The translations under genes and the position numbers were made by a program. DNA of 61,546 nt, the filler included, from Nemertoderma westbladi (taxonomy: Eukaryota; Animalia; Xenacoelomorpha), in NCBI GenBank assembly GCA_032718475.1. It is 3 parts of 3 records of this genome, joined end to end, with 100 filler letters (N's around TTAATTAATTAA, not from the genome) between each part and the next. Parts side by side here need not be neighbours in the genome. Positions count along the whole stretch, not along the records: positions 1 to 31,323 come from JAUCBJ010002677.1; 2 more parts are not named here. The stretch is one strand, 5' to 3'. Below the pieces are notes generated by a model. That model made no database searches. It saw only the letters and a list, made by a program, of their open reading frames with translations, and had not been told where the DNA came from. The first letter of the stretch is position 1. Every line of letters starts with the position of its first letter. Positions 3,565 through 54,341 of this stretch are shown piece after piece.

Positions 3565-4298
3565 TTATAACTTTGCTGAATTTAGGAATTAAGTTTTCTT
3601 ACAAAACAGTTTTCCATTATTATATAAATTTACTTGCCGAATAAAAAGTTAAAACCTTTCTAGTAGATATGAAAGACTGACTACGAGAAGATTCCACCCA
3701 TCAACGATAAGCACACGGTTGATGCTGACCAGAAGGTTTGCCCAACATGGGAGGGGGGGGGGGGGGGGGGGGGGGTTAAGTGATACAGGGTGTATGTGGA
3801 GATGAGCACCGAATGGAGACAAGTACGATATGAAAGTGAGAGCTCGTGAAATTTTGATTCACGTCGTTGCACGAAATGACGTCCCCACGACCTGTGCTGT
3901 TGGTCCGCAACCACTCGAAGGAAGTGTTTCGCTTGTATTATTTTGCTTTCAAGTAATGGGATATTATTTTTAATAACCATTTCCCTTCAACTACTTCAAC
4001 TTGGTACGTATGTAGTCCGGCAAAAGTTTAGAAAGAATCGGAAGCTTGGTAAAAAAACGAACGAATGTAACAAGTTTACATTGGATACGAGTATCCATCT
4101 GCCATAAAAAAGCAGTTACTCTCACAGTTTCGAGACTTTGAATAGTTATAAAGGTCATTAGTGTCTATGTAGGAATATTATTTCAAGACAAAACAGGACG
4201 AGCGCAACGAGGCTAATGTAGGATAAGTTAGGTCATACATGTAGGTCATATTGTAGGTCTAATGTAGGTCTAATGTAGGTCATACATAACTTAAATAG

Positions 4299-4942
4299 TG
4301 TAAACAGATTCAATTCCCTGCACTACCCAGCGGAAAATGGAGAAAGTGGCTTTTTACTAATTATAGTTGGCCAGGTGACATTAGTAATATAATGTCACCT
4401 AATAGCCAAAACAGGCAATACACATTGCCAGCCACAAGCAGAGATGAGAGGCCATAAACCATCTCAAGGGGACAAAGGGGCTAGCACATAGGGATAATGG
4501 TACCACCATATGAAGAGATTATAGGTTAGCCAATGATGGGTCAGAAAACCATCTATCTGATTATTACTTTAAAACTATTAAAACTATCTGATTATTGGCT
4601 AGGCCACCTAATAGTAGGAATATTCAATATGTGTTAGTAATATGTTACACTTATTACTTGTTATTCAGTTGGTCTGTGTAAAGTTGGGAAGCAAGACGGT
4701 TTTAACTGTTGTCCTCGTCTTTAATCGTGCTAATTATTATGTTCTGATTGTGCTATTATTATATTCTGACATTACGAACAACTGCCACTAAAACTCACTT
4801 GGCTATTATTCAACCGGCCTTCAGCCTTACAGACTCAGATATTGCTAAGCCTTTCAGCAGCCCACGGACGCAGCGACGCGTATAGCCCGAAAATGAACAC
4901 ATCCGGTCGGGATTCCCTCGCCAACTCAGGAATTCATCCACA
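4299..4942 (+). repeat. 5' LTR of BEL element A (644 bp, TGT...ACA)
   Basis: Starts TGTAAACAGATTCAATTCCCTGCACTACCC and ends TCCACA; homologous to the LTRs at 37388-38055, 44507-44929 and 53731-54341, which lie on the minus strand. Confidence 0.9.
4665..4698 (+). promoter_or_regulatory. Possible Inr (TCAGTT) + DPE (AGACG at +28) core promoter in LTR A
   Basis: TCAGTT at 4665-4670 and AGACG at 4694-4698; the Inr is kept in the solo LTR but the DPE is not. Confidence 0.3.
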
Positions 4943-4952
4943 GTTAAAACCG
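4943..4952 (+). promoter_or_regulatory. Non-tRNA primer-binding site of element A, complementary to LTR 4697-4706
   Basis: GTTAAAACCG directly follows the LTR end with no TGG; its reverse complement CGGTTTTAAC is at 4697-4706, and pairing extends to 13 bp (4940-4952 with 4697-4709). Confidence 0.7.
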
Positions 4953-5004
4953 CTTAGCGAAACTTCAAACTCAAAGAAACTGTGACGAAAACACGCCAAT
5001 GACA

Positions 5005-6980
5005 ATGAGCGAACAACAGCCCCAAGGTCCAGAGGGAAAAGGAAGACCACTGCACACCCCGAGCGATAGAGACCAAACGATTTGGGAGGCAGTGACGAGG
5101 CGGTACCGGCCCACCACACCAGATTCGCCGAGGAGAGAGGGTTTGGTGGTTGAAGAGGACAGCGGCCGAGTACGAGGGGAAGAGGGATACGAGTCGGCGC
5201 GAGATCAGAGTGACGAACAAAGTACCGGAGTCATATGGCCTACCAGTGGCCGAGGGCGGCGAGCGGCCCACTGGAATGGCAATGGTGGGGCTGACGGTAC
5301 GACCCTGGACGAGGAGAGAAGGTCAAGTTCAGGGGGAAGACATCGGGACGAGCGATCGCCTACGACGAGGGTACAATGCCATGAGGAAGCTAATAAAGGA
5401 TGCTAAGACCGGAGGAAAGGTAGACCAGCCCAAGTTGTACCGGAGACTCGGTGAGTGTAATAAACATTTCCACTACCTAGTCTGGTTTGTGCAGGGGGAA
5501 TTAGCAAGTGAGAGGGTGACGGGGGTCGTCTCAGAACTGTTCGAATTGTGCCGATCCGAGATAATACCACCTGGTATAGTATACGTAGGGCCTTATCTAG
5601 TGGATGCACGGGAATTAAGTTAGTGGGATGGGCGGATTCGCACGACGCTGAACCCGAGGTTAACCCTGAAGATTCGGTGTCGTCAGTTAGTAGAAATGCT
5701 AGCAAGCATGGCAAAATTAGTAGAACGAACAGGCGATGGGAGTCCGTCGCAACCGAAATGTCCGCTACATCCTCCGCGAAAGCAAGAAAGATGTTAGAGA
5801 TAGATCTGGCGTGTCAGATAGACATAGTTGCGTTGGACCAAAATGAGTTAGAGAGACAGTTGGATGATGGGACTGCATTGTTAGAAAGGAAAAGGGAGTT
5901 AGCGAGAGAATGTAAATAGAGGCCCGAGAAAGTGGCTAGAGAGTATAGAGAGAGGGCTGCGAGGGAAGCAAACGAGTATAGAGAAAGGGTTGAGAGGGAA
6001 GTGAGTGAGTTTAAAGAACGGGAGGTGAGAGAAGTGAACGAGCGTAAAGAGCGAGAAGCGAGAGAAACAGAGTTAGCCGACCAGAGTATTAGAGAGGACA
6101 GAGAGAGAGAAAGGGCCGGCAAAAGAATGCGGGTTAAAATGCATACCTGGTTGAGGGGGTTAATGCAGGATCAGGCGAAACAAAAGCACCGATTAGAACT
6201 GGCAAAACTGGGTTTATCAGCGAGTAACGCTGGTTCGATAAGTATTTATGAGGAACCAGGGGTCATGGAAAACTTTGTTAATACTCCACTTACAGGGACT
6301 GGACGGCAAACGATGGAGGAGAATAGAGGGTCAGCAAATATCTACGAGGCCGTACAACCGGGTAGGGGAAGAAGCATTCACACCGTAAATGGCCAAACGA
6401 GAGAATGTTGAACCCATTCGGAAGATGGAAGGAAAAGAGTAGGGTTCATCCGGGAGGTCGATACGAGATCTCATGAATGTAGATATAACGCCGGAAGTAA
6501 AGGATGTGAGGGGGTCGATAGGGATAAGCAAGGAAATGTTGCTACGGGCAACCAGAGGTGTTGAGATAGGATGGACAGTGAACCGTCGATAGTTGAAGTG
6601 GAGGGAGAGAACCGGTGGGGTTGCACTTCGGGAGATTACCATAGCCCCGAAGGAACACAGCCTGGCGATGTATATTACACACTGGGAGAGGGGTATAGAA
6701 TATACCGAGATGAAGTAGATGAGAGAAGAAGGGATTGAAGGACAACTTCCCGTTGGAATGTGACTGCTGATCAACGATATGGTGGTCGCGGGGAGGAGTT
6801 CTCGGAATATTCGAGAAGATTCAAACTTTGGTCTGGAGGACCACATTCAGACTGCAGGACATACTGTAGGTCTTACTGAACATACTATAGGCTATGCTGA
6901 GAGAGATAGTGTAGGTGATAGGGTAACGCGAATGCCAGGATTGGACCCAGAAGTCGCGGCTTACATACCGGTGAGTTTAT
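5005..6980 (+). pseudogene. gag N-terminal part of element A, frameshifted, with an E/R-rich coiled coil
   Basis: ORF pieces 4999-5406, 5150-5623, 5548-5919, 5932-6411 and 6779-; collinear homology with element B gag (EVNPEDSVSSVSRN, LEIDLACQ). Confidence 0.75.
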
Positions 6981-6982
6981 AT

Positions 6983-8076
6983 CATATCCACACCACTATG
7001 TCTAAATGGTGGATCATGATGTCTCACTCTAGTGGTTGACAATGGTGCCATTTCCTATATGGCCCTCTCCTTATTCATCCGCTGACATGTCTGGCACTGC
7101 CTCACTACTGCCTTTACCATCTTTCTAAGTTGAGTTACCTAGTACTTCCTCCTGATCTTGTTTAAGGTCGCATTAGTACCACCATGAATTATGGTCTTAT
7201 GGGCGTCCCATATAATCTGGTGAATTATTGGTAACTTGTTAGGAATTATTACTGGTTTCGGTGGAACCAAGGCATTGGTGTTATTGGCCACTCTGGAATT
7301 CATTACCAGGATTGCATCCTCATCCAGTTGCGGCGACAGTGTGTGGATCCTGCTGTCTTGTCGAAGACGTTGTTGGTTCTTAATATGTTTAGTATTGTCT
7401 CCGAATGCCTTACCTTGCTCGTATCATATTACGACTTTGGCAGCTCCTTCAAGATCAATGGTAGGTTTGGATTTCCCAACATACCAGCTCTCCCAAGGAA
7501 TTCTCTGTAAGCTCTCAGATATGCCACTAGCTTCTTAGTCTTATACCAGCTAGAGGTGTAACTGCGTAACCTATCCTTTGGATTATCGTTTGATTCTATC
7601 GTCTTAGATTGTGATGGCGTTTCCTTAATCTCCCTCACTAACTGGCTGAATATCTCTTCTCCCTCCGATTCGTTTCCCTCATCCTCCACTATTACTTCCT
7701 CTCCCTTTGGATCTACCTTCCTCATTGGTGGCCACTTCGACCTATCGTTGAGGAAGTGTGGACCATGCTGCCACAACACTTGCTTTCCCGAGAAAGCATG
7801 ATGTTGTATGCCTCTCGATAGCAAGTCCGCCGGATTGTCGTCAGTCGGGCAGCAGTCCGTCATCGCTCTTATCTCATCCAGTCAATTCATCATGAATATG
7901 GGATAGCGCATCTTCTCATTATGCAGCCATCCTAATACCACCATGGAATCCATCCAATAGTGTGTTTCCACTATACTTGGTATCGAATCCACCAAATATG
8001 CTGTCGCTCTCGCTCCCAACCTCGCAACTGTTAAAGTTCAAGTTTCTATACTGATGCTGAATTTGGTGGTGTCGAC
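6983..8076 (-). repeat. Inverted copy of element A pol segment 19020-20117 (end of RNase H to start of integrase)
   Basis: The reverse complement matches 19020-20117 almost base for base; ORF 7429-7863(-) is nearly the same as 19270-19581(+). Confidence 0.92.
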
Positions 8077-8320: not shown

Positions 8321-11045
8321 ATATATATAATTTATTGACGACTTGGATTATATAAACAGTATCAATAATTAAATACTCATCACAAAATAAACCGAGGTTG
8401 TCCATATTTAAGCAATTAGAAAATAATCACGAAATCACAAAATATTCTAGAACTTATAAATACGGTAGACACATAGAAGGAAGGGCTTTTAATACGTTAC
8501 ATAAATGATACAATTATTCTAGATCAACAAAGGCTGACGGAACGACTTATAAGAGGATAACTTTAATACCTTTAATACGGAACTAAAAACTATTCACCAT
8601 GACGTTGTAATACTTTTTACTAAGAAAAACGGTAAATTCATAAAGGGAAACGTTTAGCAACCAAAAACACAACAATATAAGGTATAGATATAATTATTTA
8701 TGTGCACAGATAAAAAATTGAATATTCTACTTGACATAGAGATTCTGAAATGTAGTACCAGTTAATTGGCCAAATAAAACAGGAAATACGAACCGATACC
8801 AAAGATCTGGGTGGGCTTAATTATTTTCTTCCGCCAACAGTAGGATCAAGTGGACAGCCTCCATTACCTTGGCTTCATCCTTGTTGTTCATGAAATAGGA
8901 AATTGAACACCATGATAGGTTGGGATCTCGTGGGATACGACTACAAGTGGTTATCAGATGAGCTTCATCTTGTATCGACCCACAAAGGCAGATACGGCGA
9001 TCAGGTGGGATCTTTTTCCAGCGACCTAATTCAACGGCTAGGCGGGTAGAGCCGAGCCTTAAGCGGGTCCAAGCGATGCGATCAGGTTCGTTAAACGTTT
9101 TGCGGGAAATGTAACAAATGTGAGGTGATAAATTGGGGTTATATAACTGGTATAATTTTTTCTTTGTTGAGTCGACCTCGGCGCGAACATTTAATTTTAG
9201 TTTTTCCATGGCATCCATCACGAAGTCTTTCTTTGAAGAAAGAATATATTCAATCTGGCGCGCCATAGGCGTTCGATGCAACATACATTGGTCTAGTACC
9301 ATCATCAGAGGTTTGTGAATCTCTTCATGTTCGATCATGTTACACAAAAAGTCGTATTGCTGTTTCAATATAAGTGGTTTAGGCTTGGGAACATTGGATT
9401 CAATATGGAGAATTAGTCTACACACATTGGGGCGTACGCCCATTATTAAGCATAGCATTTCCGTATACTGTTTGGATAATGGGGCTAAGTCGCCAGTTAT
9501 CCACGTCTCGCAACCATATAGAATGGCGGATGAAGCAGCCGCGCGAAATACCTGCAGCTTTAACCACAATGGGATGTAGTAATTCTTGGCTATGAAAGCA
9601 CGGAACTTTGAAACTTGTTTCAGCTTTTCTTCGGCGTGTAACACGATGGCGGTTTTCGAACCACCGGTTTGAGTGATAGGTGAGCCTAAATACAAATAGG
9701 AGTCTGTATTCTTTATAGCAACTGTATCGCAACTATAGGACGGGACTGTTAAAACCAACTCTGTTTTATTGTTTGCTTCCGATGCAGGACCAACTACGAT
9801 AAATTTTGTCTTTTTGGTGTTTAATATCATACCGTACTCGCCGCAATATTCTAGAACCTTTTCCATCTTGGCTAGACATAAAGAACGGGAAGAAGCGAGA
9901 ACAACAAAATCATCCATAAGGAGGAGAATATGTAGCCAATTTAAGAAACTATCGGGGGTGAAACATCGTAGAGCGGATGAAAGCGGGTTTAGAAACATAG
10001 TAAATAGGTATCCACTGCTGGGACCTCCTTGGAGAACCCCCACGCAGGAATTTATTTTAGATTTTCCTAGGATACTGACCGTTTTAGAGTACATTAACTG
10101 GAGCATGATCAGCATTCTTGAGCTGCATCCCATCGATTTGAGTAGTTCAAACAACTTTCCACGAGGGACTTTATCGTAGGCTGTTCGGAAATCTATGAAT
10201 ACAATGTATAGCTGATGCTTTTTGGACTCTGCAAAATCAATGAGGAGGCGAAGAGTAAGGATTTGTTCTAAACAACCACGGCCTTTAACGGCTCCCGCTT
10301 GCTCGCAGCTTGGAAGTCTCCACGAAATTAGGCGGTGAAAAAAAATAGTGTCCAGTATTTTGTAAATGGTATTTAACACGCTAATTCCTTGGTAGTTTGA
10401 GTATTGTGACTTAACGCCACGTTTGAAGACAGTGATTAATCTAGTGAAACCCCACAGCACAGGGTATGTACCGGTCAGGAATACTAGATTCAACAGAGAG
10501 AGCAGCTGCAATATCCAGGTGAATGGCAAAAGTTTAAAGAAACCCGGTGAGATACCATCGGGGCCAGGAGCTTTCCCAGGTTTAATGTCGTTAATTAATT
10601 TTAATTTAATAATTAGTTTAATAATCATTCCGATGTTTAAATCGTCAACATTAACTAACGATTTATTTAGGATGGCATGAAACTTTGTAGTATCAACGCA
10701 TGAGGTATCGAAATATAGTTTCTTAGCACATATAGGTTTACATGGATTTTACAATAGGTGACAGTAAGAGCCCAAAAGGTCAGCTCGTTCAAGAAGACAG
10801 GCAGACGAGATGAAACAAAATTTAGTAATATACAGGCTAAACTCTACCCTGGCGTGGTTTGATGGCCAATCGAAGTCCAACAGAGTGTTGAAATCCGTGA
10901 ATCCGGATATCAGGTCTCCAGAGCAAAGTACACGGTCCAATTCAGAGATATATCCAGACCTGCGTTTAAATGTTAGATTTCCACTGAAATACGACCCATT
11001 CAATGTCTCGAGGTAGCTCAAATTAACTAAGCAGGCGCAAGAGAG
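8319..11045 (-). mobile_element. 5'-truncated RTEX-like non-LTR retrotransposon inserted in element A pol
   Basis: APE C-terminal remnant (ISELDRVL..PSNHARV, 10749-11048), RT ORF, AT-rich 3' UTR, AATAAA and (TA)n tail at 8319-8336. Confidence 0.8.
8817..10628 (-). CDS. Reverse transcriptase with C-terminal Cys/His finger (truncated LINE ORF2)
   Basis: KAPGPDG, YQGISV, EQAGAVKGRG, FIDFRTAYDKV, GVLQGGPSS, LMDD, YLYLGS, RICLCGSIQDEAHLITTC. Confidence 0.88.
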   Translation of the reverse strand: MIIKLIIKLKLINDIKPGKAPGPDGISPGFFKLLPFTWILQLLSLLNLVFLTGTYPVLWGFTRLITVFKRGVKSQYSNYQGISVLNTIYKILDTIFFHRLISWRLPSCEQAGAVKGRGCLEQILTLRLLIDFAESKKHQLYIVFIDFRTAYDKVPRGKLFELLKSMGCSSRMLIMLQLMYSKTVSILGKSKINSCVGVLQGGPSSGYLFTMFLNPLSSALRCFTPDSFLNWLHILLLMDDFVVLASSRSLCLAKMEKVLEYCGEYGMILNTKKTKFIVVGPASEANNKTELVLTVPSYSCDTVAIKNTDSYLYLGSPITQTGGSKTAIVLHAEEKLKQVSKFRAFIAKNYYIPLWLKLQVFRAAASSAILYGCETWITGDLAPLSKQYTEMLCLIMGVRPNVCRLILHIESNVPKPKPLILKQQYDFLCNMIEHEEIHKPLMMVLDQCMLHRTPMARQIEYILSSKKDFVMDAMEKLKLNVRAEVDSTKKKLYQLYNPNLSPHICYISRKTFNEPDRIAWTRLRLGSTRLAVELGRWKKIPPDRRICLCGSIQDEAHLITTCSRIPRDPNLSWCSISYFMNNKDEAKVMEAVHLILLLAEENN

Positions 11046-11823
11046 CATCAGGAGGTCGATGAAGAGTGAGGGGTGCGGTACTCCATAGGCATGGTGTGGA
11101 AGGAACCAAAGTTGCCCCTGCCAAACAACAGGAGGATGGTCGAGACAAGACTTCAGAAACTAAAGCAAACGCTTAAATGGAGTCCGGAGAAAAATGACTA
11201 TATACATAAAACAATAAAGAAGTATGTAGATCAGGGGTGGGCCGTGGAACTACCAGTGGACGAACCGGACACCTACAGAACTTATTATCAACCACTTCAT
11301 GTGGCCCTAGATCCCAAGAATTGTAAGCTAGGATGGTGGTTAATGCTTCTGCCAAGACCAACGGGAAGTGTCTCAACGATTACCGGTTAGAAGGCCCCAA
11401 TATCTACAACTCGGGGATTTAGGTTCTGTTAAGATTCAGGAGAGGGAAACATGCCTTCACATGCGACTTAAAAGGGATGTTTAACCAAGTTCATGTGACA
11501 GAGGATGATAGCGATAGTCAATGCTTCCTATGGTACGATGGTGATGACAAACCGTCAACCATACCAATTTACAAGATGGTGGTGCAGAACATGGGGGCCA
11601 AGTCATCTCCATTCACCACAACCACGACGGTGAGAGAGACGGTTAAGGATAAAGAGGCAGAGTATGGTAAGTAAGCGATCGATATGATTCGACACTGATT
11701 CTACGTGGATGATGGGATGGGTTCAGGGAACTTTGTTAAGTAGATCGTCGAGATGGGCCGCGAAGTTTGTGACATCCTGAATAAATCCGGATTCAACTTG
11801 ACAAAGTTCCAGTCGAACTCTAA
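11041..11823 (+). pseudogene. Element A reverse transcriptase, disrupted
   Basis: LPNNRRMVETRL, YYQPLH, DLKGMFNQV, MGAKSSPF, FYVDDG and SGFNLTKFQSNS, the Pao-type RT motif series. Confidence 0.88.
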
Positions 11824-11924
11824 CAACTGTGAGAGAGGAATTGGAATTTCACCGTTTTCCTACCGGTACCATAATAATACTGTAATAATAAAATACTACA
11901 ATTTATAAATAATTTCTGCAATAT

Positions 11925-13991
11925 ATGCAGGACTATTGGCCAACTACACTAATGGCCAGCTTACCGGAGACACCCAACCATGACACCTCATCCGATTACA
12001 CGCCTAAACAACCGGAGCGCCCGTTAGAATACGAACTCTGGTCGATACCAGACCTTAAAGCAGAACTTCTATCCCTGAACAAGTTAACAAATGGAACTAA
12101 AGCTGAGCTAATTTTAAGGCTCAAACAGGGGTCACGCAACCGCACTAGGACCCCTAACCGAGAGAAACCGCGGCTATTAGCGGCTCCTTACCCAGCAACC
12201 GAAGGCAGGCCCATCGATTCGATAACCCTCGCGTCCGATACCGGTACTACTGGTGGGCTTATCCGGTCATCAGATAAATCCACCGGAAAGCGTACTGGAC
12301 TGGGACGAACTCCAAAAAAATCCGCAGAAACATACCCCACAGATGTAAATATGACAGAGAACCCAGTAATGCCCTTCCAGGGCAACGACATCCCAATCCC
12401 AACCAACACCATCATTAGCCGCAACCCTAACTTGGACGATACTGTTTATTGGGACCCGGAGATTGTTGGAAACATCTCCACTGGAGACGGTACCGGTAAT
12501 ATGGCAACGACCACGATGGATGAAACTACGGTGTTTCGTCGCGGCATAGATAAATCCCACTGTAATACGATCGGGATGCTGCATCAACAAGTAACGGAGC
12601 TTTTAGCACGGACTAACACGCTGGAGACTCAACTGCACCAAATGCACACAAATCGAATAAACGACAACAAACATTATACAAAACAGATCGCTGAACTCGA
12701 AACCGTGATATCGGAACTTAAACATAGGCTTACCGGTGGTAGTTCGGTTGCCGACCACAGTGACCCTATTATAGAGTTACCACTACCCACTGCCACCCTA
12801 AATTCTAATCATCTCGTACAAGATTGTGGAACCCAAGTACAAGATACAGATATCATATCGAAGGATGATACAGTTGGTAATATCAATGTTTATCAACTCC
12901 CGGATGAAGCACATGGAGGTGAAACTTCGTCCAGGGATCGGGATCATCCACAAACCGTAGACAAGGAACATCAATTTACGCTTATCGAGAATAATAAATT
13001 AACTAAAGTCCAAAACCTCCTGTTTATGGACAGCAACCGCGCCAACTTGGTCTCAGCACAGTTGAAAATGGGGACTCGAATGGTACCGACATCAACTTCC
13101 ATATCGTTACTTCGGAATGTAAAGACAGCAGCAACACAGTTTCCGAACGTATCAACCATCTTCATTATGGTTGGAACAAATGATACTACCGGTCGAGATA
13201 CGAACGAAGACATAAACTTAATATTGCATAACTATACGGAGGCCATTAACCTTGCTATGAAGACTTGGCCTGGATGCAGAATTACTATCTCGGAATTATT
13301 GGTACGCAAAGATTACCCAGTTAGTAATATAAACTTTCGCATCCATAAACTCGCTAAACAACTTGGTGTGACCATTGCCTCTTTTAGTCATATCACTCAT
13401 GCGCACTTAAGGGATAATAAACACGTCCACACGAAGCATACCGGTTTACTGGCGCGGACGATAAAAAGACACCTATTTAACACCCAGGAGAATCACAATC
13501 CTTTGGGTTCTCAACCGCGTAATAATCGGTCGCCGACAAACATATCCATGCGATTTACCCAACCGATTAATGCAACGAACCCTCAACTCCCAACAGAGGG
13601 AGTTACGCATCGCGGTATAGCGACACTTCCACCACAACACTACTACGCAATCAAACCACGGGATTATAGCGCTGTGGCTACCCCGCAGTCGAATAATACA
13701 GGAATTGTGCCGACAAACCAATCCACAACACTGGATCGAACAACACTTCTTCCTCGCCCCTACCAATCCCCACCCAGTGCTGCGTCCTTTAATGTGGACC
13801 CCCCTGGTACACAGACGAGCAGGTCCTATGGAACGGATCCATCCGTACCATATGCAGGGGCAGCCCCATATTATTATCCTACAAACGCACCACATAACGG
13901 GCAATTTCGGGACAGTAGGAACCACGTAATGTCGGCAGTTAGCAACCTTCTTTTCTGCCTTGGTCAACAAATAGAACCTCAGCAGTATTAA
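11925..13991 (+). CDS. LINE ORF1p: SAP domain, coiled coil and SGNH/GDSL esterase-like domain
   Basis: SIPDLKAELLSLNKLTNGTKAELILRL (SAP pattern); LLFMDS, IMVGTND and RDNKH (esterase blocks); intact 688-aa ORF. Confidence 0.85.
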   Translation: MQDYWPTTLMASLPETPNHDTSSDYTPKQPERPLEYELWSIPDLKAELLSLNKLTNGTKAELILRLKQGSRNRTRTPNREKPRLLAAPYPATEGRPIDSITLASDTGTTGGLIRSSDKSTGKRTGLGRTPKKSAETYPTDVNMTENPVMPFQGNDIPIPTNTIISRNPNLDDTVYWDPEIVGNISTGDGTGNMATTTMDETTVFRRGIDKSHCNTIGMLHQQVTELLARTNTLETQLHQMHTNRINDNKHYTKQIAELETVISELKHRLTGGSSVADHSDPIIELPLPTATLNSNHLVQDCGTQVQDTDIISKDDTVGNINVYQLPDEAHGGETSSRDRDHPQTVDKEHQFTLIENNKLTKVQNLLFMDSNRANLVSAQLKMGTRMVPTSTSISLLRNVKTAATQFPNVSTIFIMVGTNDTTGRDTNEDINLILHNYTEAINLAMKTWPGCRITISELLVRKDYPVSNINFRIHKLAKQLGVTIASFSHITHAHLRDNKHVHTKHTGLLARTIKRHLFNTQENHNPLGSQPRNNRSPTNISMRFTQPINATNPQLPTEGVTHRGIATLPPQHYYAIKPRDYSAVATPQSNNTGIVPTNQSTTLDRTTLLPRPYQSPPSAASFNVDPPGTQTSRSYGTDPSVPYAGAAPYYYPTNAPHNGQFRDSRNHVMSAVSNLLFCLGQQIEPQQY

Positions 13992-14103
13992 TTTCTTCAT
14001 GCAAGCTTAACTTTTACCATATTGTTTATCATTATATACCCGAAATTGCTTTAAATTCAATTTTCTAATTTTTTTAGATATAATAACTACAATCCATTTA
14101 TTT

Positions 14104-16593
14104 TTGGAAGTCCATATAATTGCATCTACAAGTTTAATTTTACATACCGTAACAATTTTTACGCAAATAGCGATAGCCTCAAACCTTTATTGGCTAACAC
14201 TTTCGCGCAATAGGGATATACCATGGCAGAATCCAAGCCAATGGATAGCAGTGTTATTTTCAGTTACAATTAATATAATTTATCTAAAGTGCTGTACTGG
14301 CGCATACATAATAAATGGAGTTTTTCATAACCTCGATGTTTTTATAGCTGCTGCTATATTTTACTCACTAATAAATTTATTATCTTACTATATACAGAAA
14401 ATATATTTAATAGTTTTAATTTTGTGCATTTATGTTATATATATATGTAGGGCGGCAGCCAGAAGGGTAGAGTACCAGTCCCTCGCAGCCTTGGTATGGT
14501 CGATCCTTTTTATCAACACCCGATATGCTAGTTTTGCTAATCTTTGTGCAATTATTGTGTTCAACTACACTATGATCCAAACTTCCCAGAATATATATGC
14601 AAATATGTACAAAATATGTGTGCTCATACGCTTTAATTATAATGGCCCTACCAGGAGCAAACAGCACGGGGGTGTCCCCCATATCAAACCCAATCGCACT
14701 ACGTTTTTTAAAAAGAAAATTCATCTACGTTTGTATGGAACTTTTTCTTTAACTTGTTCATTATTACAATTACTATCAGCCTTATCCCGCACTAATGTAA
14801 CGTATATGATTCCAGTTGGGTTGGTATTTTTAACACTTAATATACTCTCAATTATTTTAAGCTATTCTTTATTAATACATACAAAAATAAAGTATAAAAA
14901 TAATCACAAAGCTAAAACCCACTGCTCAAAACTAATAATATTAACTATAGCTATGCTACCATGGCAACCGGCCATAACAATAACAATAATTACTAACAAT
15001 TATTTCCCCACTTATCTATCTAATAGAAAAATAAATCGCGCCCTAAATGAATTAAATTACAAACAATTAATTATATTTTTTATCAAATTAATATGGCACT
15101 GTTTTCATATTTATATGATATCTGGTATTGACCTCTTAATCTCTGCTTTAATTATTTCTGAACTTCTATATCGAGCAGGAGACATTGAACTTAATCCAGG
15201 GCCTAGTGGGAAAAACAATCCCCATCAAATTAAAAACGTACAAACATCAGTTGACCTTAGGAAATACTTACTACAAAATAATAAAGAACTAAAATTCCTC
15301 CACATCAATAGTTCCAGCCTAGTAAAGCACTACACCGAATTAAAATATGTCTTACACGGTATTGATAGCAATATTATAATTGGAATAACAGAATCATGGT
15401 TAAAAAGCAAAATATCTACAAGATCCATAAAATTACCAGGATTCACTCCTTACAGGGATGATAGGAAACGGCGCACAGGGGGTGGTGTAGTACTGTACAT
15501 ACCAAACTCATTACCACACAAATTACGAACTGATATCAAACCTAATCGCAAACAAAATCAATATGAATCAATATGGGTGGAAGTAAATGCGGAAGTTCTA
15601 TTTGGAGTTGTTTACAACAACTTAAAGAAGAATGCACCGACATTTATTTCTAACTTTTCACAAGAAGTCGAAAATGCAGTTAGCAATGCAAACTTAAAAA
15701 CGGTAATAATGGGTGATTTAAATATAGATCTAATCAACGGTGACTCAAATACTGATAAACTTGAAGAAATGATTAAATTATATAACCTTGACATCACTGA
15801 CAGATCTAAGCCTACACGTTACAGTACCACACCTAGCCTTATAGACATATTTATAACGACACCTAATTACTTAAGAGACCATCAGACAATGAGCTGCGAC
15901 TTCTCCGACCATGAATTTATAATCGCAAAAGCAAACACAATTAAAGCACCTACACAGCCAAATAATATATGGACATACAGCAGGGATTTCAAGAAATTCA
16001 ATGAAAAGCACTTTCAACATGATATATGTAGCTTAAATTGGGCGGATATATACAACAACACTAGTATTGACACTAAGTACAATTATTTCGAAGAACAACT
16101 AGAATATGTAATAAACAAACACGCACCAATGCAACGAAAATTAACATCAAGCATTGATAGGAAAATTAATAATAAAAAAAGTGAAAAACTACAGGGAATA
16201 AAAGAACAAAAACTAATCAAGTGGCGAAACTCAAAAATCAAGAAGGACTTCAACATATTTAAGAAAGCCCGTAATGAATTTAATACACTAAATAGAACAC
16301 TTAAAAACAATTATATCAAAGCTAAATTTAAGCAGACTGATACAAGTAAAAATAAATGGACAATCATAAATAAAATTATAAATAAAGATAAAAAAACATG
16401 CACTATTACTGAGCTTTACGACAATCATAAAATACGCACAAACAATAAAAAACGTATTGCAACAATATTTAATGCCGCTTATATAGCAATGGGCACATTC
16501 ACAGGGACAAGCAGCACGGCTAACAGATTACATTCATATCTCAATATCCCCGACAGCCAATCTAAGCACTGCAGAGACTTAAGGTTTCACTAA
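14104..16593 (+). CDS. LINE ORF2, 5' part: hydrophobic leader, 2A-like motif, APE endonuclease
   Basis: GDIELNPGP at 15178-15204, then HIN, GITESW, GGGV, MGDLN, SLID and SDH endonuclease motifs; ends at a frameshift; start codon uncertain (TTG at 14104, first ATG ~14572). Confidence 0.85.
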   Translation: MEVHIIASTSLILHTVTIFTQIAIASNLYWLTLSRNRDIPWQNPSQWIAVLFSVTINIIYLKCCTGAYIINGVFHNLDVFIAAAIFYSLINLLSYYIQKIYLIVLILCIYVIYICRAAARRVEYQSLAALVWSILFINTRYASFANLCAIIVFNYTMIQTSQNIYANMYKICVLIRFNYNGPTRSKQHGGVPHIKPNRTTFFKKKIHLRLYGTFSLTCSLLQLLSALSRTNVTYMIPVGLVFLTLNILSIILSYSLLIHTKIKYKNNHKAKTHCSKLIILTIAMLPWQPAITITIITNNYFPTYLSNRKINRALNELNYKQLIIFFIKLIWHCFHIYMISGIDLLISALIISELLYRAGDIELNPGPSGKNNPHQIKNVQTSVDLRKYLLQNNKELKFLHINSSSLVKHYTELKYVLHGIDSNIIIGITESWLKSKISTRSIKLPGFTPYRDDRKRRTGGGVVLYIPNSLPHKLRTDIKPNRKQNQYESIWVEVNAEVLFGVVYNNLKKNAPTFISNFSQEVENAVSNANLKTVIMGDLNIDLINGDSNTDKLEEMIKLYNLDITDRSKPTRYSTTPSLIDIFITTPNYLRDHQTMSCDFSDHEFIIAKANTIKAPTQPNNIWTYSRDFKKFNEKHFQHDICSLNWADIYNNTSIDTKYNYFEEQLEYVINKHAPMQRKLTSSIDRKINNKKSEKLQGIKEQKLIKWRNSKIKKDFNIFKKARNEFNTLNRTLKNNYIKAKFKQTDTSKNKWTIINKIINKDKKTCTITELYDNHKIRTNNKKRIATIFNAAYIAMGTFTGTSSTANRLHSYLNIPDSQSKHCRDLRFH

Positions 16594-18178
16594 TATCACT
16601 GAACTTAACATACACGACATATTAAATAAAATAAACTCTAACAAATCACCTGGCCCTTCACCCATATCTCCAAAAATAATTAAACTTATCTCCCCGTACA
16701 TCATTAAACCACTAACCTACTTAATAAATGAATCTATCACCCGTTCAACATTTCCAATGAAACTAAAATATGCTGAAATAACACCTGTTTTTAAAAAAGG
16801 CGATCCCCTGGAAGCTGATAACTATAGACCAATTTCAATTACATCAGTCCTGGAAAAAATATTTGAGAAAGTATTATACATACAAATCACGCAATACCTA
16901 GTAAACAATAAATTAATTAACAGTAAACAATTCGGTTTCAGAAAATCATTCTCCACACGGGATGCTATAATCTATGGAACTGAAACATGGAGGAGTTACC
17001 TAAATGAAGATAACTACGTAGCCATAGGCGCACTTGATCTCAGCAAGGCCTTCAATTCTCTCAATCACAAGATTCTCCTGGAAAAACTAAAAGAACTAGG
17101 TTTTCACAATACTGCCATCACAATGGTACAAAGTTTCGTAGTAAATAGGTTTCAAAGAGTAAAAATAAAGGGAGTCTGTTCTGATTGGGGAAAAATAGAT
17201 CATGGTATTCCACAGGGTACATTACTAGGGCCAATTCTATTCTTAATCTATGTAAACTCACTAACAAATAAAACCGATCTCCAACTAATACAATATGCTG
17301 ACGATACACTTGTTTACTGTTACGATAAAAATCCTGAAGCAGCTGCAACTAAACTATCGAAACATATCCATGAACTTTATAACATATTCGCTCTCCTACA
17401 TCTCCAACTGAACAATGATAAAACTGAATTTATGCTTCTTTCCCCTAACTCTAGAACAGATCATATTGCAAATATAGAATTAGATATATCTAAACCGAAT
17501 GGTACCAAACAAACAATCATACCACAATCGAGTTACATTAAATACTTAGGAATTTTTATAGACAACAAACTACAATGGCGTAAACATATCGATACTATAT
17601 CAACCAAAATGACTCATGCAATTTCGGTACTACGACAAGTAAAGGGTCAGTTATCAGTAAAAACAAAATTATATATCTACAAGACTACAGTACTACCACA
17701 TCATACATATTGCTGTGAAATACTTGTAGCATTACATAATATACATGGTTTTAAAACACTTATAAACGATTTAGAAAAAATTCAGAACTATGGCCTACGT
17801 GTTGTCTACAGTAAAAAAATACGCGATTTAACAGGTACAGAATTGAGAACTTTGTCTAAGCAACCAACTCTATTCGCATTCCGAGAGTATATGGCTATGA
17901 AATTCTTTTTCAAATATCTATTCCAGATTAGCAAACCATTTCAAGAGCAACCTTTGCCATTCATTCTAAATAACACTACACAACTGAATAAACGTACTAA
18001 TAAAATAAAACTTCCCAAAACTAATAATAATGTAGCCTATAACAGCTTCATCCTAAATTGTGCTCGCTTGTGGAATAAACTTGATCGCAACTTCAGCGAA
18101 AAAAGAAATTTTAACGCATTTAACGCAGCCATTAAGCAACTCTACTACACTTCTTTTGAAAGAGATAGTATCACATAA
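16586..18178 (+). CDS. LINE ORF2, 3' part: reverse transcriptase, continuing after one frameshift near 16560-16590
   Basis: KSPGP, NYRPIS, QFGFR, LDLSKAFN, GIPQGTLLGP, YADD, KYLGI; the frame is open upstream of the listed ATG at 16757. Confidence 0.9.
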   Translation, partial: FTNITELNIHDILNKINSNKSPGPSPISPKIIKLISPYIIKPLTYLINESITRSTFPMKLKYAEITPVFKKGDPLEADNYRPISITSVLEKIFEKVLYIQITQYLVNNKLINSKQFGFRKSFSTRDAIIYGTETWRSYLNEDNYVAIGALDLSKAFNSLNHKILLEKLKELGFHNTAITMVQSFVVNRFQRVKIKGVCSDWGKIDHGIPQGTLLGPILFLIYVNSLTNKTDLQLIQYADDTLVYCYDKNPEAAATKLSKHIHELYNIFALLHLQLNNDKTEFMLLSPNSRTDHIANIELDISKPNGTKQTIIPQSSYIKYLGIFIDNKLQWRKHIDTISTKMTHAISVLRQVKGQLSVKTKLYIYKTTVLPHHTYCCEILVALHNIHGFKTLINDLEKIQNYGLRVVYSKKIRDLTGTELRTLSKQPTLFAFREYMAMKFFFKYLFQISKPFQEQPLPFILNNTTQLNKRTNKIKLPKTNNNVAYNSFILNCARLWNKLDRNFSEKRNFNAFNAAIKQLYYTSFERDSIT

Positions 18179-18488
18179 ACTTACCCCCCCCCCCCCCCCT
18201 CCCCCCTCCCCCACCCACCCACCCACCCACCCCCAAACTGCTTGCTCCTGTAAGGGAATACTGTATTTCTGTATTGATTATTGTGCTCTATTTCTTAGGT
18301 AATTTTTTTGTATACATAGGTCTACAGTAAGTACGATTATGCAGTAGAACTAGCATAAGGTAGTTGACGCTTATTCTCTACCAATTAACAGCTGTGTCTG
18401 GACTCTCCCGACTGAGCTGCCTCCATTTTTATTATTTTATAAAAGGGAGTTTAAGAGAATAAAAGATAAATAATAATAATAATAATAA

Positions 18489-21030
18489 AGAATTCATGGA
18501 AGCCATAGAGGACAAACAACCTGAAGTAAAATTGGATAAACCAATGACAGCGAAAGAGCTGATTATGGTGGATAAAAGAGTAGAATCACAGCAGAAAGCT
18601 CTAGGGATCGTATGGAATCGGGAGACAGACGAGTTGGAAAACCAGCTAAGTCAGGAGGGTGCTGGGTTCCATACAAAGATGTCATACATAGTGAAGATCT
18701 ACGATCCGCTAGGACTAGCATCTCCTTTACTAGTTACGGGGAAGCAAATACTCAAGAAGGTTTACAAGATTTAGGATGATTTGAACGTGGAGGTTCCGAT
18801 AGAATTAAGTAAACAATGGGAAAAATGGACGGTGAGCTTATAAGATATGGTATGATATGGTACTTATAGTATGCCATGGGTATACTTCCCGGATGGAGAC
18901 GTGAGTGATTTAGAACTACATATTTTCTCCGATGAATCCCTGGAAGCATTTGGTGCGGTGCTTTATTTGGTACAGCGAAAGGAGAGTCATAAGCCCAGAC
19001 TAGCGTTTAGTAAAGCGAGGTCAACACCACCAAATTCAGCATCAGTACAGAAACTTGAACTTTAACAGCTGCGAGGTTGGGAGCGAGAGCGACAGCATAA
19101 TTGGTGGATACGATACCAAGTATAGTGGAAACACACTATTGGATGGATTCCATGGTGGTATTAGGATGGCTGCAAAATGAGAAGATGCGCTATCCCATAT
19201 TCATGATGAACTGAGTGGATGAGATAAGAGCAATGACGGACCTGCCCAACTGATGACAATCCGGCGGACTTGCTATCGAGAGGCATACAACACCATGCTT
19301 TCTCGGGAAAGCAAGAGTTATGGCAGCATGGTCCACACTTCCTCAATGATAGGTCGAAGTGGCCACCAATGAGGAAGGTAGATCCAAAGGGAGAGGAAGT
19401 AATAGTGGAGGATGAGGGAAACGAATCGGAGGGAGAAGATATATTCAGCCAGTTAGCGAGGGAGATTAAGGAAATGCCATCACAATCTAAGACGATAGAA
19501 TCAAACGATAATCCAAAGGATAGGTTACGCAGTTACACCTCTAGCTGGTATAAGACTAAGAAGCTAGTGGCATATATCTGAGAGCTTACGGAGAATTCCT
19601 TAGGGGAGCTGGTACGTTGGGAAATCCAAACCTACCATTGATCTTGAAGGAGCTGCCAAAGTCGTAATATGATACAAGCAAGGTAAGGCATTCAGAGACA
19701 AAACTAAACATATTAAGAACCAACAACGTCTTCGACAAGACAGCAGGATCCACACACTGTCGCCGCAACTGGATGAGGATGGAATCCTGGTAATGAATTA
19801 CAGAGTGGCCAATAACACCAATGCCTTGGTTCCACCGAAACCAGTAATAATTCCTAACAAGTTACCAATAGTTCACCAGATTATATGGGACGCCCATAAG
19901 ACCATACATAATTCATGGTGGTACTAATGCGACCTTAAACGAGATCCGGAGGAAGTACTAGGTAACTCAACTTAGAAAGATGGTAAAGGCGGTAGTGAGG
20001 CAGTGCCAGACATGTCAGCGGATGAATAAGGAGAGGGCCATATAGGAAATGGCACCATTGTCAACCACTAGAGTGAGACATCATGATCCGCCGTTTAGAC
20101 ATAGTGGTGTGGACATGTTTGGGCTGATAAAGATCAAGGTGATGCGGCATACCGAGAAACGCTATGGTATAATCTTCGAATGCAAAAACACGAGGGCCGT
20201 GGCGATAGAGTTGTCACAGGATGCAACAGCGTTGGCATTTATTAATGCACTTGAACAATTCGTGACCCATCAAGGAGGAACAGTTGAAGTGCTTTATTCC
20301 AATAATGGCACAAATTTCATTGGAGCGGAGAATGAGTTGGTGGAGGCCTTCGATATTTTGGAGGGAGAAGATGTTAAAGGGGCAATCAGGAGGCACCTGA
20401 TTAGATGGCAAAGGGGGACACCATACGCACCACATACACTGGGTTGCGTAGAATATCTAGTCGGAAGCTCGAAACAGCTAATGACGAAGCTCCTGAATAA
20501 TCATATGGTGACAGAGTGTATGAAGATGGATGTATTCAGGATGTATTGAGAATGGTGCTGGCAAAGTGTGAGGGGATAATCAACAGCTGACCGCTGTATC
20601 CCGAGAATGATGATCCAGAGATGCTGGGTGTTCTGACACCAGTACATATTTTGATGGAGAGGCCAGCAAAGATAGATATGCGAAATATCGACACAGATGT
20701 TATAAACTACCAACAGAGCTGGAAGGTAGCTAAGGCGAAAGGAGCAGAGTATTGGAAAAGGTGGATTCAAGAGTACCTATCAACGATGTACAAAAGAAGC
20801 AAGTGGAGAAATAATCAGAGGAATATAATCAGAGGATTTAATAATTGTGACATGATATGATCATCAACAATCACTGGAGGCTGGCCAGGGTAGTTCAATG
20901 TTACTCTGGTGGCGACGGAAAGATTAGATCCGTGGAGGTCAGGATCGGAGGAAAGATTGGGGCAAAGGATAGGAAGACCTACAGGAGGGCAGTAGGAAAG
21001 TCCATAAATTGTCCAATCGTCCAATAAATT
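18489..21030 (+). pseudogene. Element A RT end, RNase H and integrase, disrupted
   Basis: KALGIVW, IYDPLG, LHIFSD, NPADLLSRG, HGG..ATL..IRRKY, CQTC, GVDMFG, NGTNFIG, WKRWIQEYL, DGKIRSVEV. Confidence 0.88.
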
Positions 21031-21790: not shown

Positions 21791-22334
21791 CTATAGTGGG
21801 CACTGAGGGCGCCACGTGACGAGTTGAGCGGGATATGTAGGCGTGGTAGGATAGATAGTGTAGGCCGCACAAATTAGACTACTACTGTATAGCGCATAGC
21901 CCAGAGTGCAGACTTAGAGTATTGTTACAGACCCAGAAAGCTGTCTGGTGGAAAGTTAGCATAACAATAAGAAAATTGTACTGTAGCTAGTAAACATACA
22001 ATGAGTAGTGATGAATTACTTATGAAGTAATTAACTGATGAGGTGCTACTTAATAAGTAGCAAAGATGTATAGGTAAATAATTACAGCAAGGTGAAGAAA
22101 TCGTATTAACTGAAAATTAAAAATTCTAGAAACATAATAAAAAGTAATGGACAAAATTGCGAAAGTAGGAAAAAATTGATACGTAAGTCAAAAATTAATT
22201 GTAAAAAGGGAGATAAAAGTAGATAAAAGGTAAGCCATCGCTGATTTAATGCTGATTGAAACTGAAATTAGTTATCTCTTGCCCTACTGAGCCTTTGCAA
22301 TGCACCACCAGTTCGGTGAGAGAGAGAAATCGGG

Positions 22335-23249
22335 ATGGCGGAGAAGTTAGTCAAGATGTGGAAGTCGGAAAAGAGTGAGAGTGAGCTATTAGTCGATTTC
22401 ATGCGGAGACATCTGGAGAATAAGACGAGGAAGTATTACAATCGACTCCCTAAGAGTCAGAAAGCATACGTGTTACAAGATCAGTACCGAGGTATGCACG
22501 AACACGATTAGTTCGAACCTACGGAACACCGTCATTGGATGATGCGATTGACAAACATCTTTGTTATGTCATAAAGGGGGAGGAGAATTCCTTTGGGATT
22601 CCAAGGTATGCGAGGGAACCAGCTATGAAGGAATGGACGAAGTTTGTCGAATCGGTAGATGGTTTACATGGTTTTGGGTGACGAGGGTACTGTAGAGGAT
22701 GACGACGAGATGAGTATGGGGTCCAAGGGGTTGGGTAGAACTATATTGCTGCATCTAGCGGCACCGAACGGAGATATTTTTCTGTTCGACCCGGTGACCT
22801 ACGGGAAAAAAGATGGACCAAAGCTGAACCGTTTACCGGATGCGGTGCAGATGCTGGTGAGAATGAAGACTATGATAAAGATTGGATCAGTGATACGCGA
22901 GGAAACGGAGAGTATTAATGAACCAAACACCCTGCGTCTTCTGGATATACAGGTAGTCTATATGGATATGACGAAACCAGATGGATTAGGACTGGTGAAT
23001 AACACGGAACAATACGGAGCCGTGGCAATGGGCCAGCTTATGGGACTCATATGCCATAAGCCGAAGGAGTGGAAGAAGTTCCGAGAGGAGTACAGAGCGG
23101 AACTGACAGAATCACTCGGCGCGAGGCCAGATGGAGAGGAGTTGTATCATTTCCAAAAGGGGACAATTAAGACATACCCGAAGAGGTATATCTTGCAGGA
23201 AGACTGGATAATGATTGGGTTAGTGAACTTGTTCATGACGGTGATGTAG
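22335..23249 (+). pseudogene. Extra 3' ORF of element A: DEDDy (WRN/EXD/RNase D-like) 3'-5' exonuclease-like, disrupted
   Basis: VLGDEG, LLHLAAPNGDIFLFD, LPDAVQMLV..IKIG..IREE, LLDIQVVY and YILQED follow the motif order of the family; the ATG context at 22335 is conserved in element B. Confidence 0.55.
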
Positions 23250-23269
23250 GTAAGCAGCAGGGAACACTA

Positions 23270-23770
23270 GTAGCAATTGTTTAGCTCAAATTACTGTGGT
23301 CTCTATGAATCCATGCTATTTCATAACCCCTAACGTACCGGAGCTGAATTTCTCCCTATATGTGAGTAAAATTGGTGGCAGTCGGCAAATTCGCGTATTT
23401 CAGCATTATTATCACTGTGTGAGTGTGAATGATTAATAATACATTCCTAAAGAATGAAAACATTTGCGTTATAATTGTAATTAGTATAAGTCATAACTCT
23501 GCGTGGTATTTAAAGCGCAGCACCTGAAAGGAACTGTTGGTATTTCCCTGAAAATAAATATAGCTTTTGGAGATTATATAGTAGAGATCAATCGAATAAT
23601 ACAAAATAGCCTACCCCTCTCTCTGGCCATAGAATTCAGTCTCCCATTTCCGGTGGGTCATATGCCGTGCTAGACTGACTTCGGCTGTGTTCATATTTCG
23701 TATGGGCTGTCAGACATCATAAGACATATGAATTAACAAGTTAAACTGTTAAAGGTCTAAAAGCTCAAAC
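23270..23770 (+). repeat. Dispersed repeat, copy 1; marks the end of recognisable element A
   Basis: Homologous to ~50690-51200 (TTCTCCCTATATG..AGTAAAATTGGTGGC ... GTTAAACTGTTAAAGGTCTAAAAGC). Confidence 0.8.
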
Positions 23771-33872: not shown

Positions 33873-33892
33873 ATCTTACAACAAAAATAATT

Positions 33893-33965
33893 CACCGGAA
33901 TGGGGGATTGAATTCGGTACCTAGAGATTCCAATTCCCACGCTCTGCCAACTGAGCCACTGTGGC
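33893..33965 (-). pseudogene. tRNA-derived segment (pseudo-tRNA or SINE head; TGG at the anticodon position)
   Basis: Minus strand GCCACAGTGGCTCAGTTGGCAGAGCG...GAATTCAATCCC gives an A box and a degenerate B box, with T5 shortly downstream; acceptor stem is poor. Confidence 0.6.
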
Positions 33966-37387: not shown

Positions 37388-38055
37388 ACGGTATCCACCT
37401 AGAGTTGACAGCAGTGGATACCGACCGGTGTAGGTTGTACGCGTCGTTGCGTCGCTGGGCTGTTGGGCTGACTGGCGGCTGGATAATATCTTTGCCCGAA
37501 GGCCGGTGAAAACAATATAGTTTGTTTGTCAGTATTGATAATCACAGCAATTGTTAATAGCACAGTCTGAATGTAATAATATTCAATGCAAACAGTAACA
37601 GTAATAACGACGTAGTAACGATGGTCAAAACTATTCCGGTCTCACAAATGTAAGGGAATCAACTAACTGATAATCAGTGATTACAATGGTTATATCATTG
37701 ACACATATTGGTTTTAGCCCTACACTACTGGGCGGCCTCTAAGATCCAATGGATGCGCTCTTGTCCTCCCCAATGTGCTTTCCTGCCGCTATTGGCTCAT
37801 ATACTAATTGTCACTTCGCCACTCCCTGTTGGTGTTTCCCCTTGGTGCTAGCCTCACTAGTTGGTTTCTCCCTCTGAGGTGGTTTGACCTCTCACCTCTC
37901 TCTGTGGCTTACGGCGTGTATCCCCCCCCCCCCCCACCCCCCCAGTTGGTTATGAGGTGAGATTATTATTGGTAATCTCACATCGCCAACTATATTGGTA
38001 AAATGCCACTAGTTCCATTTTAGGTGGGTAGTGCACGGAATTGAATCCGCTTACA
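37388..38055 (-). repeat. 3' LTR of element B, missing its last 4 nt
   Basis: Begins TGTAAGCGGATTCAATTCC on the minus strand right after the polypurine tract; closely similar to 44511-44929. Confidence 0.9.
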
Positions 38056-44506: not shown

Positions 44507-44929
44507 TGTGACGGTATCCACCTAGAGTTGACAGCAGTGGATACCGACCATTGTAGGTTGTACGCGTTGTTGCGTCACTGGGCTGTTCTGCTGACTGATG
44601 GCTGGATAATATGCTTGCCCGAAGGCCGGTGAAAACAATATAGTTTGTTTGTCAGTATTGATAATCACAGCAATTGATAATAGCACAGTCTGAATATGAT
44701 AATATGCAATGTAAACTGTAACAGTAACGAGGGTCAAAAACTTTTCCGGTCTCACAACCGTAAGGGAATCAACGAACTAATAATCAGTGATTACAAGAGT
44801 TATATCATTGACACATATTGGTTTTAGCCCTACAATACTGGGTGGCCTCTAATACCCAATGGATGCGCTCTTGTCCTCCCCAATGTGCTTTCCTGCCCGC
44901 TATTGGCTTATATACTAATTGTCACTTCG
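44507..44929 (-). repeat. 5' LTR of element B, upstream part lost
   Basis: Matches 37388-37818; similarity stops at 44930. Confidence 0.88.
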
Positions 44930-45619
44930 GTGTGTATTTGTGTTCGGTGTGTATGGGGTGTAAATATTGATGTCCCCACTATAACAGTGATAAGTATACA
45001 CACATTATCTACGTCATTTTGTGACGTCACAATGTCCCCAGTGAGCTTAATTTTCAACGACCCCGGTTTGTGGTTGAAATTAAGTATGTTATGAGTTATG
45101 TTCAATTATTTATGGATTAGTTAGTCAGGTCTGTCTTTGAGACAATGCAGCTCAGGCAATCCCTAGATAATGTTTTTTTATTGTTTTTATACACTCTTGA
45201 ATAATTGTAAAAGTTAATATTTCCTTATGAGTTACCTATGCACCCCTTGTGGTGCAACTTTCCTCAGTTACTATAACAATGGATTTTATCTTAGTCGATA
45301 GTGCTAAACAATCCCGCATGCACTATGCATACAAGCATGTAGCAATTTTTTTTAAAAATATGTGGACAAATATCGTCTTACGGCCACTGCTACTTTTTAT
45401 TCTGTGGGGGCACTAATTAAATTCATGTTTAAAATAAATACAAATAAGGTGGAGCCAAACGATATTTTATAATTTTATATAATTATACATTATAATAATT
45501 ATACAATTTTATATATTGACGAAAACACACCATTCTAAATACTGTCCCTTGCGCACACCTGGGGGCTTTTTTAGTGCTGGGAGTATTATAATAGGCCCTA
45601 CGTATAGTTGCAATGAATG

Positions 45620-53730: not shown

Positions 53731-54341
53731 TGTGACGGGATACAGTTGAGTTGGCAGTTTGAACCCCAACCGGTGTGTTATTTGGGCTATACGCGTCGCC
53801 GCGTCCATAGGCTGCTAAAAGGCTGTAGTCTGAATGTTAAGGCCAAAGGCCGGGCGGAATAACTGAGTTTTAGTGTATGATATTAATAATGTCAGATCGT
53901 AATAATAGCACAATCAGAATAGAATAGCACGGTAGTGACGACGGTTAAAAACCGTTTTGGTCTCACAACTCTACAGATACCAACTGAATCATAATCAACA
54001 AGTACAATGGTTATATTGCTAACACATATTAGTTACTCCTACTATACTGAGTGGCCTTACCAATAGATGCGTTCCAATCACCTGTTTTCCCCTCCCATCA
54101 TTGGCTAACCTAATTAATCTCCATCTCGCCACTCCCTGTTGCCACTGTCCCCAATTGCTAGCCCCTTTGTCCCCTGAGATGGCTTATGGCCTCTCAACTC
54201 TATACATGGCTGGCAGTATGTGTTGCCTGAGTGGTTATTAGGTGACATTATATTGGTAATGTCACCTTCCCAACTATAATTGGTAAAATGCCACTTCGCC
54301 CATCTTCCGCTGGGTAGTGCAGGGAATTGAATCCGCTTACA
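53731..54341 (-). mobile_element. Solo LTR (611 bp) of the A/B BEL lineage with a 5-bp TSD
   Basis: TGT...ACA termini; GTGAC at 53726-53730 and 54342-54346; homologous to LTR A. Confidence 0.93.

Follow-up and report, generated by a model that had tools for sequence, protein, structure and literature searches.

In the 61,546-nucleotide stretch of Nemertoderma westbladi DNA analysed here (the window), two BEL/Pao elements, A and B, each carry a PBS that pairs with a tract inside the element's own LTR; this pairing is real, lies well above chance and is part of a wider BEL/Pao pattern. We consider it probable, at roughly 0.7, that the LTR tract serves as the primer of reverse transcription and replaces a host tRNA. 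A self-derived primer was what the original prediction had proposed for this lineage, and the pairing itself, the mirrored changes at the two sites and the behavior of relatives in other animals all argue for it. On the best reading, the primer would be cut from inside the leader, at about +40 if the inferred transcription start is right, unlike the +1 to +11 primer of Tf1. To a wider reading we give slightly better than even odds: a large and so far undescribed part of BEL/Pao, in many animal hosts and perhaps with several origins, would use an 11-nt primer cut from within its own capped leader, in many cases put together when the host splices out an LTR intron, with the PBS rewritten from that primer in each cycle, and the family in the window would represent an isolated lineage with the form that lacks an intron.

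BEL/Pao replication is poorly understood and is described as tRNA-primed (PMC8742986). If the self-priming reading is true, self-priming would occur in all three LTR-retrotransposon superfamilies, and its geometry (an internal primer, splice-dependent in relatives) would go beyond the first-11-bases model of Tf1. It would also connect splicing with the start of reverse transcription in a way open to test, offer a route by which LTR introns are kept or lost, and explain why annotation tools based on tRNAs would miss or misread such elements.

Two BEL/Pao elements and a solo LTR

The elements and LTRs of the family within the window are as follows.

4299..4942, plus strand: 5′ LTR of element A, 644 bp, TG..CA, alignable to the solo LTR and the B LTRs
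4999..6972, plus strand: gag of element A, broken, with 72-76% DNA identity to B gag
18463..20949, plus strand: RNase H region (18463-19578) and integrase (19742-20949) of element A, broken, with Peptidase_A17 and DUF5641
44507..44930, minus strand: surviving 3′ part of the 5′ LTR of element B, with a U5 hairpin (44549-44510) directly ahead of the PBS
37388..38055, minus strand: 3′ LTR of element B, preceded by a purine tract, final 4 bases absent
53731..54341, minus strand: solo LTR of the same family as A and B, with a 5-bp target duplication

We assign both A and B to BEL/Pao, in accordance with the original prediction. A tblastn search with a full BEL polyprotein query gives a BEL-type pol in element A, with the integrase after the RNase H, and the BEL Pfam domains Peptidase_A17 (E 6.8e-5) and DUF5641 (E 2.1e-7) match there. 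The kinship of A and B rests on the DNA identity of gag and LTR, and further BEL/Pao traits are the TG..CA ends and target duplication of the solo LTR and the purine tract before the B 3′ LTR. Element B (44930-37388, minus) retains gag, protease and both LTRs, which are 90-93% alike, while element A is a broken copy carrying several insertions, with no 3′ LTR found within the window; both are decayed, broken copies. The solo LTR (54341-53731) begins and ends TG..CA and is flanked on both sides by GTCAC, and the A and B LTRs align to its end, so that the pairing discussed below plays no part in defining the LTR ends.

Several other sequences were seen in and around these copies. A reverse transcriptase piece of 173 aa at 11330-11848 is not surely part of element A. 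Within A gag, the RNase H-integrase region of A recurs as a 1.1-kb inverted duplicate (96%; 6983-8076 versus 19020-20117), and two non-LTR retrotransposons interrupt A (8817-10748, minus; 11913-18178, plus). One of them combines a near-intact ORF2 in two frames with an ORF1 that holds a SAP domain and matches GDSL-esterase weakly. The window also holds tandem arrays of 52 and 72 bp and a 1-kb fold-back repeat (32924-34934; 55660-56698).

The family's LTR is very abundant in sequencing runs of the host. In searches for close relatives, the A integrase reached at most 41% identity in 102 BEL loci from other animals and at most 44% among the best 150 matches to 1.84 billion proteins, and two further searches returned 0 and 1 matches. 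The LTR-start pattern had 0 matches in metagenome and viral contigs, as did the P0001 search in viral contigs.

Complementarity between the PBS and the LTR tract

The paired sites and the corresponding tract of the solo LTR are as follows.

4943..4952, plus strand: PBS position of A, GTTAAAACCG, no TGG, exact complement of 4697-4706
4697..4706, plus strand: candidate self-primer tract of A, CGGTTTTAAC; bases 4707-4709 also pair with the last three of the LTR
44506-44497, minus strand: PBS position of B, GTCAAAAACT, no TGG, exact complement of 44742-44733
44742-44733, minus strand: candidate self-primer tract of B, AGTTTTTGAC, 10/10 with the B PBS
53954-53944, minus strand: tract of the solo LTR, CGGTTTTTAAC, at the same place in the LTR

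The coordinates previously given for these motifs all hold, and the tract in the B 3′ LTR (37632-37624) is one T shorter. A tRNA-type PBS had been said to be absent, and neither A nor B has a TGG between the LTR end and the gag ATG; a tRNA search of the window found none. The pairing between the PBS and the own LTR tract is 10/10 in each element, and the tract occupies the same LTR position in both. The two sites were also said to change together, and they do: A and B differ at 3 of 10 positions per site, and all three differences are mirrored. The lengths of the homopolymer runs match as well, with four T opposite four A in element A and five opposite five in element B; the solo LTR has five T, and its tract matches the A PBS over 7 contiguous bases only. 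Pairing had been said to halt at the LTR boundary, which is the case for B, while the A helix extends 3 bases further into the LTR and comprises 13 bp (4697-4709 with 4940-4952). When the partners are swapped between A and B, duplex energies are -3.2/-3.3 kcal/mol versus -10.9/-10.0 for the own pairs, and the A PBS finds 4-5 nt at most in the B LTRs, the B PBS 4 nt in the A LTR. Tract variation was also viewed in host contigs, where no substitution of at least 5% falls on the tract among those listed, the three bases 5′ of the tract vary, and no contig was found that spans both tract and PBS.

Since the tracts are T-rich and the window offers only two pairs, chance pairing of A/T-rich sequence has to be weighed; we regard it as very improbable. 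Dinucleotide shuffling of the A LTR produced a complement of at least 10 nt to the PBS start 10 times in 20,000 (p 0.0005), and that of the B LTR 21 times in 20,000 (p 0.001), and such a complement would have to arise at the same LTR position in both elements. As background, 0.42% of 121,296 window positions, repeats counted, have such a complement in the preceding 640 nt.

Related elements in other animals

The second control against chance comes from the 102 BEL loci of other animals, which were fetched with an integrase alignment and narrowed to 61 with a gag match, 43 that were scanned and 28 that entered a pair matrix (19 non-TGG, 9 TGG). In this matrix every PBS was compared with every LTR, contiguous or spliced, at offsets 0-5. 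Near-copies (L050, L074, L075) and the truncated L097 were excluded, and 17 loci with a missing, partial or unclear LTR were left unclassified (L006, L008, L009, L018, L022, L024, L025, L030, L043, L044, L048, L051, L063, L073, L081, L091 and L094); two of these, L030 and L073, have the same GT-type site and lack the upstream part of the LTR.

Other BEL elements with a GT-starting PBS had been named as the place to look for the same complementarity, and it is present in the 19 classified non-TGG relatives, whose PBS begins GT or AT. By script, an own-LTR complement of at least 10 nt is found in 19 of the 21 non-TGG elements (the 19 loci with A and B). The two others are L047, which failed the acceptor filter of the script and has 11 nt across the junction by hand check, and L057, a decayed copy with 9 nt. 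Own pairs measure exactly 11 nt in 13 of 21 elements and 12-13 nt in two more, whereas foreign PBS-LTR pairs reach at least 10 in 7/870 cases and at least 11 in 0/870. Among the nine TGG elements, the own score is 4-6 in eight and 9 in one. As far as the shuffle and foreign-pair controls reach, chance pairing is refuted.

The form of the complement differs among relatives: in 6 of the 19 it is contiguous, as in A and B, and in the other 13 it spans a GT-AG splice junction within the LTR and is otherwise absent. Since in these 13 the complement exists only with the intron removed, the partner of the PBS is an RNA. One locus, L084, has first eight PBS bases identical to those of A (L084:3205-3212), and its 11-nt complement is completed across a 1-kb GT-AG LTR intron. 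In the window, a splice-made extension of the tract was looked for in the A, B 5′ and solo LTRs and found in none of them, and a 12-nt junction in the B 3′ LTR, with a weak donor and no pyrimidine tract, was rejected as probably due to chance.

All 21 PBS 11-mers are distinct, with T as base 2 throughout and G or A as base 1. The duplex, near-constant at 11 nt, starts 0-5 nt from the LTR end in 21/21 elements. For 13 of the 19 relatives the LTR end was placed where the fit appeared, which is circular, and the LTR piece of L003 is only 55 nt long. In the six relatives whose boundary is defined by both LTR copies, the own complements are 10, 12, 11, 11, 11 and 9 nt.

These regularities bear on a different account of the helix, which we hold to be quite unlikely: that it is a structural stem, resembling retroviral U5 stems or acting as a packaging, translation or polyadenylation switch, while a tRNA half or another small RNA of the host is the primer. 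Priming by half-tRNAs is a described mode (excerpts of PMC6317226), and an internal PBS for tRNA-Lys occurs in a fungal Copia group (excerpts of PMC5445492). The solo tract itself can form a 4-bp stem whose T-rich loop of 7 nt resembles an anticodon loop, and a competing stem in the leaders of A and B, described below, would also suit a structural role. Such an account, however, would require as many host RNAs as there are different PBS 11-mers, each matching the LTR by coincidence, and it has to contend with the near-constant length and position of the duplex. Read as a Lys(UUU) loop, moreover, the A tract would place a G at tRNA position 32 and the B tract a G at position 37, and the usual anatomy of tRNAs speaks against both.

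Trees were built from RNase H and integrase columns with BEL rows only, no outgroup and quick runs, with L005 and L096 added as TGG; a second tree was made without two near-copies and element C, a third BEL element in the window (~46300-48715). In these trees a single branch (SH-aLRT 98-99) unites 18 of the 19 non-TGG loci, all except L040, which lies apart. Element A is a long branch outside this self-pairing clade in the free trees, and the AU test does not reject its forced placement inside (p-AU 0.138). Among the loci, L082-L102 are 21 animal BEL elements in records titled bacterial genomes or MAGs, probably reflecting host DNA in the bins.

Promoter, leader folding and polyadenylation context

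Two features of the A leader concern the position of the tract in the transcript and its folding.

4665..4670, plus strand: initiator-like TCAGTT, putative start (A at 4667), read from sequence only
4978..4986, plus strand (44485-44477 in B): leader motif common to A and B, pairing with the LTR end and the first PBS bases

Upstream of the TCAGTT of element A lie CCAAT boxes and a degenerate TATA-like site, and in A only an AGACG follows at +28 to +32 from the inferred start, a spacing that we take to be that of a DPE. All four LTRs of the window have CCAAT boxes, a TATA-like site 66-72 nt before the end of the tract and an initiator-like T(C/T)AGTT 40-46 nt before it; in L066 the tract begins 49 nt past a TATA-like site. 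This spacing suggests an internal position of the tract in the leader rather than one at the first base. The original prediction had put it at about +31 to +40 rather than +1, which agrees with the motif spacing in 4/4 window LTRs, with the start itself a putative one.

The tract-PBS helix appears in the minimum-energy folds of the A and B leaders and also in the centroid of B. Its probability depends on the sequence context, ranging from 0.35 to 1.0 in A and dropping in B from 1.0 to 0.14 when the leader is included. We attribute this variation to the conserved leader motif, which competes for the LTR end through a stem of 7 bp in A and 8 in B and could be a competing or accessory stem, or a switch. 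The Tf1/sushi group has a three-duplex (pretzel) structure around the PBS; here, the U5 hairpin adjoins the PBS in B, and both elements have the LTR-end/leader stem, which competes in nested folding. The whole-leader folds are no better than those of shuffled sequences (z 0.43 and -1.30), and an Rfam search of 4200-5200 returned nothing better than E 2.9.

Of polyadenylation-type hexamers, A and the solo LTR have only ACTAAA past the tract, and B has no listed hexamer there. In 10 of the 18 relatives examined, AATAAA, ATTAAA or AGTAAA lies at most 60 nt past the tract.

Proposed mechanism of self-priming

If the tract is the primer, the cycle could proceed as follows. Transcription would start at the initiator-like site, about 40 nt ahead of the end of the tract, and a fold-back of the capped leader would bring the tract onto the PBS, to which it would anneal. 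The cut just 3′ of the final AC of the tract would be made by a nuclease, which the Tf1 analogy suggests is the element's own RNase H, and reverse transcriptase would extend the cut end through the end of the LTR and back to the cut. Since extension would end at the cut, the repeat used for strand transfer would span the cut to the poly(A) site. Plus-strand synthesis would then continue into the primer for about 11 nt, as with a tRNA primer, and each cycle would rewrite the PBS from the tract.

We base this rewriting on a parallel with the standard cycle, where the plus-strand cDNA terminates in the PBS sequence (excerpts of PMC7175516). It would account for the mirrored substitutions, the mirrored lengths of the T and A runs and the match between the PBS of relatives and the splice junction. 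If the PBS is rewritten from the primer, the covariation would be a copy record of primer use.

Comparison with known systems

The proposed mechanism would work like the self-priming of Tf1, outside the group to which Tf1 belongs and probably with a different primer position. In Tf1 the 11 bases that begin the element's own RNA are the primer, cut by RNase H, and Tf1/Tf2 of Schizosaccharomyces pombe and the Tf1/sushi group share the lack of a tRNA PBS, a PBS that pairs with some 11 nt of their own RNA and the possibility of flanking stems (PMC7175516 and 10.1101/2022.12.06.519325, both in excerpt). Here the complement to the own LTR is 10 nt in A and B and 11 in most relatives. The Tf1/sushi elements are Ty3/gypsy chromoviruses, unlike A and B, whose pol domains are BEL-type, and Tf1 priming has been demonstrated by experiment, whereas self-priming in BEL/Pao is predicted from sequence. 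The tract may also resemble spliced-leader RNAs and the end of the Tf1 primer.

Self-priming has likewise been predicted from PBS-LTR complementarity for Tcn1 (gypsy) and the TAR/Houba/Osr-1 plant lineages (copia), which belong to other superfamilies and hosts; the sections of PMC6317226 consulted mention no splice-made primer for them. In the fungal GalEa copia elements, pairing within the element also stands in place of a PBS, at the Conserved Hairpin Site. Its partner lies outside the LTR and no LTR complement was found, according to excerpts of PMC5445492, while in A and B the partner is within the LTR.

ICTV describes Belpaoviridae as primed by host tRNAs, with a PBS of 18 nt for tRNA-Arg or -Gly of the host (PMC8742986). 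A and B agree with this family in the TG..CA LTRs, the 5-bp duplication, the purine tract, the order of gag followed by protease, RNase H and integrase, and the BEL-specific Pfam domains, and differ from it in that the 18-nt tRNA PBS is absent from both; we treat that PBS as a described trait, not as a defining criterion. A search of the open literature, including parts of PMC3601003 and PMC8220671, found no report of BEL self-priming; most subscription papers and the Repbase and GyDB entries lay outside its scope. The terms primer, PBS, tRNA and intron do not occur in PMC3118150. The nematode BEL element Cer7 has been proposed to encode its own tRNA-like primer, which would be a different device; the literature search found nothing on this proposal.

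Possible priming in trans and an exonuclease-like ORF

Self-priming need not occur within one molecule. In priming in trans, a short transcript of any LTR would pair with a packaged genome at the PBS, and the transcript's 3′ overhang would be trimmed back to the duplex, possibly by a host enzyme or by the product of an extra ORF of element A.

22659..23249, plus strand: extra ORF past the integrase of A, with features of a 3′-5′ exonuclease domain

We consider this route unlikely. In its favor, complementarity alone cannot separate cis from trans, the family's LTR is very abundant in host runs, solo LTRs are abundant, and in many relatives the tract lies ahead of the poly(A) signal. The extra ORF resembles PF01612, which accounts for 25 of its 30 atlas matches (score 0.93), and a segment upstream of it (22196-22345) is common to A and B. 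However, the ORF has no Pfam match, no PDB sequence match and no counterpart in any of the 102 BEL loci, so that the relatives would need a host trimming enzyme, and it runs into the LTR-like repeat of a different family. The sequence of the PBS also favors cis priming, since the A PBS fits the 4-T tract of its own LTR and not the 5-T tract of the solo LTR.

Irrespective of the route of priming, the extra ORF likely belongs to element A; its single-sequence structure model has a pLDDT of 33 and is unusable. The family may, as a rather doubtful addition to the self-priming reading, carry its own 3′-5′ exonuclease that finishes the primer end. Extra exonuclease-like ORFs past pol are also found in rotifer LTR elements, as DEDDy exonuclease ORF3; the sections of PMC5408684 consulted describe ORF3 for rotifer lineages without a demonstrated link to priming. 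Element A may be a chimera or the carrier of a nested insertion. The second LTR-like repeat, into which the ORF runs, occurs in two copies that are 77% alike (23243-23771 and 50665-51200, plus), closing the 3′ region of A and element C, respectively, and the similarity between them begins at a splice-donor-like AG|GTAAGC.
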